In this document: positions 9,123 through 10,167 of the stretch, in pieces | Layout: every line of letters starts with the position of its first letter | Numbering within the stretch: the first letter of the stretch is position 1 | Virus genome (UHGV): UHGV-1657534 | Length of the DNA: 14,188 bases | Direction: 5' to 3' (one strand) | Origin: a virus | Translations under genes and position numbers: made by a program | Notes under the pieces: generated by a model | Told to the model about the DNA's origin: nothing | The model's input: only the letters and a program-made list of their open reading frames with translations | Databases searched by the model: none

Positions 9123-9950
9123 TTATTTCACCGGAACAAACGGAACAGCGGTATTACTGGTCATATACTGCGGTAATGTACCGTTCCATTTGTTGATCGC
9201 TTCCAACTCCATAACACCGGGGTTCTGGCGCAGAGCTTCACCACGTAAACGAATGGCATCAGCTTCGGCCTGGGCTTTTGTGCGAATAGCATCAGCCTGT
9301 CCGGCAGCTTCCGCGCGCAGCATGTTGGCCTCTGCTTCACGTTGTTTGACCTCTTGCTCGCGTTGCAGGGTTTTTTGGTTTGCCGTGACTTTGGCGTTAA
9401 TACTGTCAATAACTGTTGGCGGGTATTCTGGCTTACCTACATAAGAGAGGCTCATCACCTGAATACCGATTGGCGTCATTTCTTCCTGAATGTCTTTAAG
9501 GGCTGCATCAAGCAATTCAGATTTGCCACCGTCGATAAATTTGTCGGTGGTCATTTTGCTGGCTAACCGGTTCAGAGCATCTGCAACCTTCTGGCGTAGA
9601 TCGGTATCAGTAATATCATCTACACCTTTGCGATAGGTCTGAAATACCGTTGTGACTTTTGCTGGATCAACCTTGTAGGCTACGCCGATGTGGTAACCAA
9701 TGGTTGTTCCGTCGCTCATCTGGAAGCTGAACGGCTCATCGTATGTCTTCATTTGCTTAAAGGTCGGGAAGATATAAACTTCAGTATTCAAGCCTGTCCA
9801 GTAGCGACCAACGCCAACTACTTCACCGATACCTTTATCATCCCCCAGCTTATTTACTTTGATCCCTACGTTACCTGGCTCTACCCGATCGCATCCGGTC
9901 AGACATAAAGAACCCAAAATAATCGCTGCACTAATCAACGTTTTTTTCAT
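9123..9950 (-). CDS. SPFH/band-7 (prohibitin-like) domain lipoprotein
   Basis: 275-aa ORF. The N-terminus MKKTLISAAIILGSLCLTGC is a lipoprotein signal peptide with lipobox LTGC. The central and C-terminal regions (GIQVMSLSYVGKPEYP...QREQEVKQREAEANMLRAEAAGQADAIRTKAQAEADAIR) are typical of SPFH/HflC-like proteins with an Ala/Glu-rich coiled coil. RBS AGGAAA. May correspond to P1 plp (uncertain). Confidence 0.8.
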   Translation of the reverse strand: MKKTLISAAIILGSLCLTGCDRVEPGNVGIKVNKLGDDKGIGEVVGVGRYWTGLNTEVYIFPTFKQMKTYDEPFSFQMSDGTTIGYHIGVAYKVDPAKVTTVFQTYRKGVDDITDTDLRQKVADALNRLASKMTTDKFIDGGKSELLDAALKDIQEEMTPIGIQVMSLSYVGKPEYPPTVIDSINAKVTANQKTLQREQEVKQREAEANMLRAEAAGQADAIRTKAQAEADAIRLRGEALRQNPGVMELEAINKWNGTLPQYMTSNTAVPFVPVK

Positions 9951-10167
9951 TAATTAATTTCCTGGTTTTTTCACGAAAAAAGACTACTGCGAAAGCCGGG
10001 TAAATGAGCGCGAGAAGGACTCCCAACAATACAAGTATTGTGCTGTTAGATGAGATCATATTTGGCAAAAGCCAAACATACAGAACCAGTGACACAATCA
10101 AACAGAGGACGGCATAAATATATAACCGCACCCATAGCGTTCGACATTTGTTCGGATTGTTCTGCAT
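9931..10167 (-). CDS. small two-helix membrane protein, cotranscribed partner of the SPFH lipoprotein
   Basis: 78-aa ORF with two hydrophobic stretches (LWVRLYIYAVLCLIVSLVLYVWLL and ILVLLGVLLALIYPAFAVVFF). GGAG RBS before the ATG at 10165-10167. Its 3' end overlaps the start of the SPFH gene by 20 nt. May correspond to P1 upl (uncertain). Confidence 0.6.
   Translation of the reverse strand: MQNNPNKCRTLWVRLYIYAVLCLIVSLVLYVWLLPNMISSNSTILVLLGVLLALIYPAFAVVFFREKTRKLINEKNVD

Follow-up and report, generated by a model that had tools for sequence, protein, structure and literature searches.

An SPFH lipoprotein and its two-helix membrane partner in a P1-like phage: a conserved gene pair of the N4 gp19/gp20 type and a candidate periplasmic membrane module

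The gene pair and its products

We analysed a 14,188-nucleotide (nt) stretch of viral DNA (UHGV virus genome UHGV-1657534, hereafter the window) which, by its similarity to known genomes, is from a P1-like phage, its region 8900-10400 sharing 99.9% identity with 'Punavirus P1' MH422554 and 99.1% with phage RCS47. Our subject is a pair of overlapping minus-strand genes in that region, the upstream one for a small membrane protein (the partner) and the downstream one for an SPFH-domain lipoprotein (Table 1). Family matches identify the pair as a conserved phage accessory module of the same family as gp19/gp20 of phage N4. A first-pass annotation, made from the letters of the window, had proposed a two-gene unit flanked by tRNA genes in a phage replication region, and both open reading frames (ORFs) and their overlap lie where it placed them. 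The ATG of the SPFH gene falls inside the 3' end of the small ORF, behind an AGGAAA Shine-Dalgarno sequence seen on inspection. A tRNA(CAT) gene lies 27 nt 3' of the SPFH stop codon, and the small gene is preceded, at a distance of about 930 nt, by tRNA-Thr and tRNA-Asn genes. The three tRNA genes share the strand of the pair. ARAGORN and Rfam confirm them, the replication (ban) neighbourhood of a P1-like phage is likewise as proposed, and a chance origin of the ORF pair, its domain matches and the tRNA genes is excluded.

The traits of the N4 pair are all found in the window, namely matches to PHROG 1130 and PHROG 200, an upstream overlapping gene and the turn motif of the partner. N4 gp20 is 62% identical to the SPFH protein over its full length and also has a lipobox, while gp19 is a 68-residue two-helix protein with a P-x-M-V-S turn; the two genes overlap by 8 nt and lie among the N4 middle genes. 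The setting differs, as N4 is a virulent podophage and its pair follows gp18, a P22 gp17-like gene, unlike the pair in the window.

Table 1. Features of the window, with positions counted from its first nucleotide
Feature	Position	Strand	Details	Basis
SPFH lipoprotein gene	9123..9950	minus	275 amino acids (aa), ATG start	ORF; Pfam Band_7, PHROG 200
Signal peptide, residues 1-19	9894-9950	minus		read from sequence
Lipobox L-T-G-C	Cys codon 9891-9893	minus	Cys20 (predicted acylation site), then Asp21	read from sequence
SPFH (Band_7) domain, residues 22-208	9327..9887	minus	mixed alpha/beta in model	Pfam envelope
Ala/Glu-rich helix, residues 178-242	9225..9419	minus	aligns with HflK coiled-coil region	AlphaFold2 model
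C-terminal K-W-N-G-x-L-P motif, residues 254-260	9171..9191	minus	invariant W255 and G257	family alignments
Small partner gene	9931..10167	minus	78 aa, ATG start	ORF; PHROG 1130
Partner transmembrane helix 1	~10066-10128	minus
Partner turn motif P35-x-[LM]-[ILV]-S39	10051-10065	minus		alignment
Partner transmembrane helix 2	~9976-10038	minus
Partner basic C-terminus	9934-9975	minus
Gene overlap	9931-9950	minus	20 nt; contains A7 run 9941-9947
Pair cassette	9105..10192		1,088 bp; replaces 716-bp tciC-tciB-tciA of canonical P1
ban (DnaB-like helicase)	7369..8739	minus	downstream, same operon	ORF and P1 annotation
tRNA(CAT)	9020-9095	minus	trnI (tRNA-Ile2) in P1 annotation	ARAGORN and Rfam
Upl	~10360-10551	plus	64 aa	P1 annotation
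Plp	~10552-10971	plus	125-139 aa	P1 annotation
tRNA-Thr(TGT)	11096-11171	minus		ARAGORN and Rfam
tRNA-Asn(GTT)	11174-11249	minus		ARAGORN and Rfam
Terminator-like hairpin, GCCCATCTTCGGGTGGGC then T7	11741-11722	minus	~180 nt downstream of ban promoter
Bivalent C1 operator (Oban)	11907..11934		overlaps ban promoter	motif match; P1 annotation P1ban/P2ban/Oban

The larger protein had been taken for an SPFH/band-7 lipoprotein with an Ala/Glu-rich coiled-coil tail, and this description stands in each of its parts. A Pfam search aligned its residues 22-208 with positions 2-176 of the 176 in the Band_7 profile (PF01145; E=9.7e-31, 107.6 bits against a cut-off of 23.6), and it also matched PHROG 200, 'lipoprotein' (E=2e-113). 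The N-terminus reads MKKTLISAAIILGSLCLTG and then CDRVEPG, a canonical lipobox with Cys20 and an Asp at position +2. It carries the basic MKK, the hydrophobic stretch TLISAAIILGSLC and L-T-G-C20 of a lipoprotein signal, through which the protein is predicted to be exported. The lipobox Cys does not vary among 47 diverse aligned family members, and the strict pattern, [LVI][ASTVI][GAS]C, is found in 95 of 150 family representatives; in some others the N-terminus is an anchor that is not cleaved.

An AlphaFold2 model of the monomer (predicted local distance difference test score 90) consists of the SPFH domain, a single 65-residue helix that corresponds to the Ala/Glu-rich tail, and a short C-terminal helix with the K-W-N-G-x-L-P motif. 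Numbering in the model is one lower with the Met omitted, so that the long helix is 177-241 there. Foldseek searches of the PDB ranked HflK and HflC first and then erlin1/2 and prohibitin, with E-values of about 1e-14 to 1e-13, and placed stomatin, flotillin and QmcA lower; the probability was 1.00 for stomatin, flotillin, HflK, HflC, erlin and prohibitin. A sequence search of the PDB gave HflK at E=2e-4, a weak match that agrees with the fold search. Orthology to HflK or HflC was rejected, as the NCBIfam scores of 23.3 and 24.7 bits fall far below cut-offs of 159.4 and 134.4 (TIGR01933, TIGR01932, NF008181, NF008259). Nor does the window show the anchoring transmembrane helix or the adjacent paralogous K and C genes of that system; it has a lipobox signal peptide and a single SPFH gene. 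Judged from these comparisons, the protein is a bona fide member of the SPFH superfamily and not an HflK/HflC orthologue.

The top Foldseek matches are, in their solved structures, large cages on the non-cytoplasmic face of a membrane, and the equivalent long helix forms the cage wall. Because the phage protein is predicted to be exported by a lipoprotein signal peptide, it would share the topology of these cage formers. In E. coli, an Asp at +2 leads to retention of a lipoprotein in the inner membrane (the Lol-avoidance rule). N4 gp20 has Tyr at this position. From these two residues, the anchor-type relatives and the fused forms described below, we infer that the protein stays at the inner membrane.

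The partner has a basic N-terminus, hydrophobic helices at about residues 14-34 and 44-64 (the turn between them is 4-9 residues) and a basic C-terminus. Because both termini are basic, the positive-inside rule predicts an N-in/C-in hairpin with its turn on the periplasmic side. Among 14 partners from different phages, P35, S39 and G49 are invariant, and the window protein matched PHROG 1130, 'membrane protein' (E=6e-16). These features, together with the 20-nt overlap, agree with the two-helix membrane partner of the first-pass annotation. Its likening of the partner to NfeD survives as an analogy, an SPFH protein paired with a membrane protein, but fails as an identity: no NfeD (PF01957) match was obtained at E<=1 for the window partner or 13 homologues, and partners of 61-84 residues with two helices only are too short for an OB-fold domain. 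The 14 partners likewise gave no Imm_superinfect match and no consistent holin match in Pfam, the single weak hit being that of one partner to one holin family (E=0.038). NfeD, Imm and holin identities were therefore rejected for want of Pfam support. The partner belongs to no Pfam family, profile searches found no relative of it in the PDB, and its gene is unannotated in most RefSeq P1-like plasmids.

A two-helix ORF lies directly upstream of the SPFH gene in 84 of 84 loci, which comprise those with an SPFH gene among 80 IMG/VR loci and earlier-retrieved loci and cover three allele types; the overlap is 1, 4 or 20 nt. The partner is also present in all nine distant contig contexts, where the SPFH protein is 40-54% identical: seven are adjacent, one is fused and one has a single small intervening gene. 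The adjacent cases include a Salmonella prophage replication module, a Serratia lambdoid prophage (by xis/int), a T4-like contig, again with a 20-nt overlap, a jumbo-phage-like contig in which the partner is an uncalled ORF, and another two phage contigs. The conservation of the pair across related elements, on which the first-pass proposal turned, is evident in both close and distant contexts.

In the SPFH family (222 clusters at E<1e-30, of which 150 representatives were inspected), roughly 15 of the 150 have the partner fused in frame ahead of the signal peptide. The P1-type pair itself has a natural 347-residue fusion (P0001, eight member sequences), which results from the loss of one A in the A7 run within the gene overlap; this run may be a slippage-prone site, or a sequencing artefact may lie behind the fusion. 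The AlphaFold2 model of the fusion places three consecutive helices (5-38, 43-68 and 74-89) before the SPFH domain. A fusion puts the lipobox Cys in the periplasm only if the partner is N-in/C-in, which argues for an inner-membrane partner. The arrangement of the overlapping genes predicts translational coupling. Given adjacency, this coupling and repeated fusion, a functional and probably physical partnership of the two proteins is very likely.

Two observations on the gene junction may be added. On the minus strand the A7 run also forms an A_AAA_AAC heptamer; programmed -1 frameshifting there was rejected because a stop comes two codons into the -1 frame and because the SPFH gene is in the +1 frame relative to the small ORF. 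In Vequintavirinae-type phages, a gene for a conserved small soluble protein (54-67 residues) sits between the partner and SPFH genes (L099, 3798-4001; L102, Salmonella phage NINP13076, 1329-1493). The inserted protein has the motif ...SAA.(Y/F)(V/I).....(D/K)(E/K)(Y/F)V(D/E)E...

Distribution, genomic slot and transcription

By tblastn, the SPFH protein was found in 432 of 50,697 phage records. The virulent phages among them include N4, Vequintavirinae and the jumbo phage Munch (74% identity), and homologues also occur in Pseudomonas and Burkholderia phages, phiCbK, crAss-like phages, Lak megaphages and haloarchaeal viruses. A partner gene can be identified in phages of proteobacteria (N4, Munch, Pacha and NINP13076, with Pseudomonas and Vequintavirinae phages included); it was not recognised upstream of the phiCbK gene and is absent from the crAss-like, haloarchaeal and PhiSH19 examples. 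Among complete E. coli genomes, 460 of 5,426 (8.5%) carry an allele. The pair lies between cox and replication gene A in the P2-like phage P88, in the leftward operon by xis/int in phiP27 and the Serratia prophage, and among replication or middle genes in the Salmonella prophage, the T4-like contigs and N4. The module is present in both temperate and virulent phages and, wherever the context is readable, among early, replication or middle genes.

In its mature form, the SPFH protein shares 95-98% identity with those of P88 and the phiP27/Stx2 phages. Between P88 and phiP27 its nonsynonymous divergence (dN) is 0.020 and its synonymous divergence (dS) 0.53, a ratio of 0.04 that points to strong purifying selection on the mature protein. 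The three E. coli alleles agree far less in their signal peptides and partners, with only 25-46% identity. Between phiP27 and the Salmonella prophage, the partners are closer (63% identity) than the SPFH proteins (54%), and a recombination joint near the lipobox is therefore indicated. The GC content is 39.6% for the partner and signal peptide versus 48.2% for the mature part, a difference to which hydrophobic codon usage contributes. Homologues carry the public names 'putative serine protease', 'serine protease', 'putative outer membrane lipoprotein', 'SPFH domain-containing protein' and 'lipoprotein', and that of Munch is annotated 'peptidyl-tRNA hydrolase'; the serine protease, peptidyl-tRNA hydrolase and outer membrane lipoprotein names find no support in the domain matches.

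Against P1 (AF234173), blastn homology stops at position 9104 of the window and restarts at 10193, with clean junctions. P1 is annotated with tciC, tciB and tciA between trnI and upl, on the same strand as ban. Since the alignment breaks and resumes at these points, the pair is a cassette that replaces tciABC. Of 578 PLSDB plasmids matching the flanks, 189 (about one third) have the whole SPFH cassette; the other rows listed mostly have TerB/DUF3927 (tciABC), and a few have a nearly empty slot. The allele in the window is itself ordinary and common. A published survey of P1-like phage-plasmids treats tciABC as 'variable region 7', lost in about half; it does not describe a replacement, and the term 'SPFH' is absent from it. 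In CRISPR interference data on P1, tciABC, upl, plp, trnI and ban are all non-essential. Our literature search found no description of the pair, its fusions, its role as an alternative to tciABC or its function.

The position of the cassette also bears on an earlier, tentative naming of the pair as upl and plp of P1. This name was attractive in that Plp is annotated as a 'putative lipoprotein' and in that trnI and tRNA-Thr enclose both pairs in P1-like genomes. The upl and plp genes, however, are next door on the opposite strand, RCS47 carries both pairs, with Upl, Plp and the SPFH 'lipoprotein' each annotated as a gene of its own, and the slot occupied here is that of tciABC in canonical P1, which does not have the pair. 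We therefore abandon the identification, to which we give practically no chance of being correct.

Upstream of the pair on the minus strand, the only recognisable promoter or operator is Oban, which consists of a perfect 17-mer, ATTGCTCTAATAAATTT, at 11918-11934(-) and a copy with two mismatches at 11907-11923(+); 0.04 C1 operator matches are expected by chance. From Oban onwards, the tRNAs, the cassette, trnI, ban and dbn are all on the minus strand. A simple consensus test, which is crude as a promoter scan, gave no sigma-70-like promoter in 8600-12200, and none was seen by eye in 10168-10330. Because the pair is on the same strand, shows no promoter of its own and has the C1 operator and Pban upstream, we infer that it is expressed within the C1-repressed ban operon (its extent taken from the GenBank annotation of P1), on derepression rather than in the stable prophage.

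Possible functions and rival explanations

The explanation that we find best as a whole, although we hold it as plausible and somewhat short of probable, is an N4-type membrane module that forms a periplasmic SPFH cage and guards the membrane early in infection. By homology to solved SPFH complexes, the protein would stay on the periplasmic face of the inner membrane after acylation at Cys20, and its 65-residue helix would build a homo-oligomeric cage like that of HflK/C. The cage would cover a membrane patch containing the partner or organised by it. The genomic context suggests that the module is made early in lytic growth and not in the repressed prophage. What the cage might do is a guess: it could protect or close off the inner membrane of the infected cell and so block genome entry by competing phages (superinfection exclusion), or alternatively it could help the membrane to withstand pore formers or stress while the phage replicates. 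Our best guess, made with low confidence, is exclusion or protection at the level of the membrane.

Two hints come from neighbouring and alternative genes. Reviews discuss the TerB-like tciABC counterpart in connection with tellurite and colicin resistance and phage inhibition, and by analogy a TerB-like cassette in the same slot hints at a role in membrane competition or protection. Directly upstream of the N4 pair lies gp18 (L101, 3407-3721), a homologue of P22 gp17 annotated 'superinfection exclusion', and in the Ackermannviridae myophage PhiSH19 a gp18 homologue (56% identical) is directly upstream of the SPFH gene (L108, 2638-2958). A P22 gp17-like neighbour in both a podophage and PhiSH19 is a hint of an exclusion role. 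In the literature, the superinfection-exclusion system of N4 is still described as uncharacterised.

Several points weigh against membrane guarding by an early, inner-membrane cage. Some +3 residues weaken the Asp+2 rule, and in many family members position +2 is Ser or Thr. The crude consensus scan leaves room for a weak internal promoter active in lysogens, and a Pban transcript would reach the pair only beyond a strong terminator-like hairpin and about 900 nt rich in repeats. The P22 gp17-like link is confined to two phage groups, and in one of them, PhiSH19, the SPFH protein is distant and partnerless. A cage over membrane patches is also not an obvious block to DNA entry everywhere, and the cassette is dispensable, canonical P1 lacking it. 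PADLOC-DB v2 gave no match for the SPFH protein and an insignificant one for the partner (E=0.023), and a known anti-phage defence system was rejected on this basis. The literature on phage SPFH proteins or N4 gp19/gp20 offered annotation-level mentions and no experimental role. This agrees with the first-pass statement that the function is not established, and a 2026 paper likewise calls the reason for SPFH genes in phages unclear.

The fold matches also invite a different reading, in which the phage cage mimics HflK/C and captures or competes for host FtsH or another inner-membrane quality-control client, altering the turnover of phage or host proteins early in infection. HflK and HflC are the best matches in both sequence and fold and share the periplasm-facing topology. 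Moreover, HflKC, prohibitin and erlin, the nearest structural relatives, work with membrane proteases or degradation machinery. In lambda, CIII and host HflKC act on CII, and lambdoid prophages carry the pair in the leftward early operon, where lambda has cIII and kil. The resemblance is nevertheless distant, at 23-25 bits against family cut-offs of 134-159, no N-terminal transmembrane helix like that of HflK/C is present in the mature protein, and no FtsH-binding sequence feature was identified. We know of no FtsH-dependent decision in P1, P2, N4 or T4-like phages, and on balance we regard such mimicry as rather unlikely. We are similarly reserved about the composite claim that the N4-type pair is a phage-made periplasmic SPFH cage acting, early in infection, either as the missing exclusion or guarding device of N4 and many other phages or as an HflK/C mimic that controls FtsH; it strikes us as an unlikely, if coherent, proposal.

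Two further readings assign the activity to the partner and look improbable to us. The partner has the size and the N-in/C-in layout of class II holins, and together with the SPFH protein it might modulate holin triggering or sense superinfection, as a lysis-timing or lysis-inhibition module. N4, T4-like phages and P1 do have elaborate lysis control, and the literature gives the factors that send N4 into lysis inhibition as unknown. Against this, none of the contexts examined puts the pair in a lysis cassette, the 14 partners gave a single weak holin match, and spontaneous rapid-lysis mutants of N4 map to gp61, gp63, gp50 and the terminal repeats, not to gp19/gp20. The partner could instead depolarise the membrane as an effector that the SPFH protein restrains, as in a RexAB-like abortive-infection or toxin-regulator system that benefits the lysogen. 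Abortive infection had been put forward in the first-pass annotation, next to superinfection exclusion and membrane-stress signalling, and the idea would suit a pair of membrane-protein genes that sits, in temperate phages, in a variable 'moron' slot and is carried by so many E. coli genomes. The pair has no PADLOC match, however, it is present in the strictly virulent N4, T4-like, Vequintavirinae and jumbo phages, it lies in repressor-controlled early operons without a promoter of its own, and in-frame fusions of the supposed effector and regulator are common. We doubt this reading as strongly as that of a lysis module.

Several known systems invite comparison. Like HflK/HflC, the SPFH protein has a predicted periplasm-facing SPFH domain, a wall-forming helix and a C-terminal cap segment. 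It differs in its identity of about 17-21%, in having a lipid anchor and not a transmembrane helix, in being one phage-encoded SPFH protein where HflK/C is a heteromer, and in having a two-helix mini-protein as its partner in place of FtsH. SPFH-NfeD operons (QmcA-YbbJ and YqiK-YqiJ of E. coli, and the Pyrococcus stomatin PH1511 with PH1510) similarly join an SPFH gene to an adjacent gene for a small membrane protein, with occasional fusion. Their SPFH proteins, in contrast, face the cytoplasm, and NfeD has a C-terminal OB-fold and sometimes a ClpP-like protease; the partner here is 61-84 residues long, encoded upstream and without an NfeD match, and QmcA ranks below HflK/C in the fold search. 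By these comparisons the operon is not an SPFH-NfeD operon.

The tciABC genes of P1 fill the very same place in the ban operon, between trnI and upl. They too are a non-essential accessory unit with a suggested membrane- or stress-related role, but they have no sequence relationship to the pair, TciA being a TerB-domain protein. Imm and Sp of T4, gp15 of HK97 and the lipoprotein Ltp of Streptococcus phage TP-J34 act at the outer face of the cytoplasmic membrane. These superinfection-exclusion proteins resemble the pair in being small, early- or prophage-expressed and located at that face, with Ltp also a lipoprotein; they differ in that homology is undetectable (the partner has no Imm_superinfect match) and in that none has an SPFH domain. 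The lipid anchor, the predicted periplasmic orientation, the non-NfeD partner and carriage by viruses together would set the pair apart as a new form of SPFH module.

As organisers of membranes SPFH proteins are universal, with roles in bacteria that are still poorly understood, and we know of no viral SPFH protein with an assigned function. If a guarding SPFH cage is indeed what the pair makes, this would be the first such assignment, a new SPFH-partner pairing distinct from NfeD, and a virus-encoded membrane microcompartment on the host inner membrane. The module is common and highly conserved, and it is present in the genetically tractable N4 and P1-like elements; the role of a periplasmic SPFH cage is therefore directly testable. 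It may also bear on the N4 exclusion system and on what the variable tciABC slot signifies in P1-like phage-plasmids, through which resistance genes spread.

Neighbouring sequence features

The 'dicF-like region' of the P1 annotators ends at the terminator-like hairpin downstream of the ban promoter. This hairpin suggests a short C1-controlled RNA, with read-through needed for the tRNAs, the cassette and ban; a search for DicF downstream of Pban gave no Rfam match at the gathering score. A third C1-operator-like site, ATTGCACTAATAATTTT, lies at 1484-1500(+) with two mismatches to the consensus, about 70 nt upstream of an ORF starting at 1573, and probably controls another C1-regulated operon.

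The stretch 10200-11100, which includes upl and plp, consists of about four diverged units of 200-260 nt repeated in tandem. Its repeat families have copies at 10313/10574/10807/11003, 10365/10848/11063, 10557/10986, 10348/10627 and 10485/10881, and a long inverted repeat is found in the upl/plp stretch at about 10581-10671. On the minus strand, 10201-10321 gave a sub-threshold match to the Rfam small RNA STnc100 (37.8 bits against a gathering score of 47, E=3e-6). The 'Plp' translation is Cys-rich, begins with TTG and is unlike a real protein. The upl/plp region may therefore encode structured RNAs in the sense of the ban operon and not Upl and Plp.

Beyond the cassette, three segments are without a blastn match to AF234173: 10829-11003, which extends the 3' end of plp, 12057-12370 and 13040-13627. 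The latter two are mosaic patches inside the dmt methyltransferase gene, and RCS47 shares 10829-11003 and 12057-12370 with the window.

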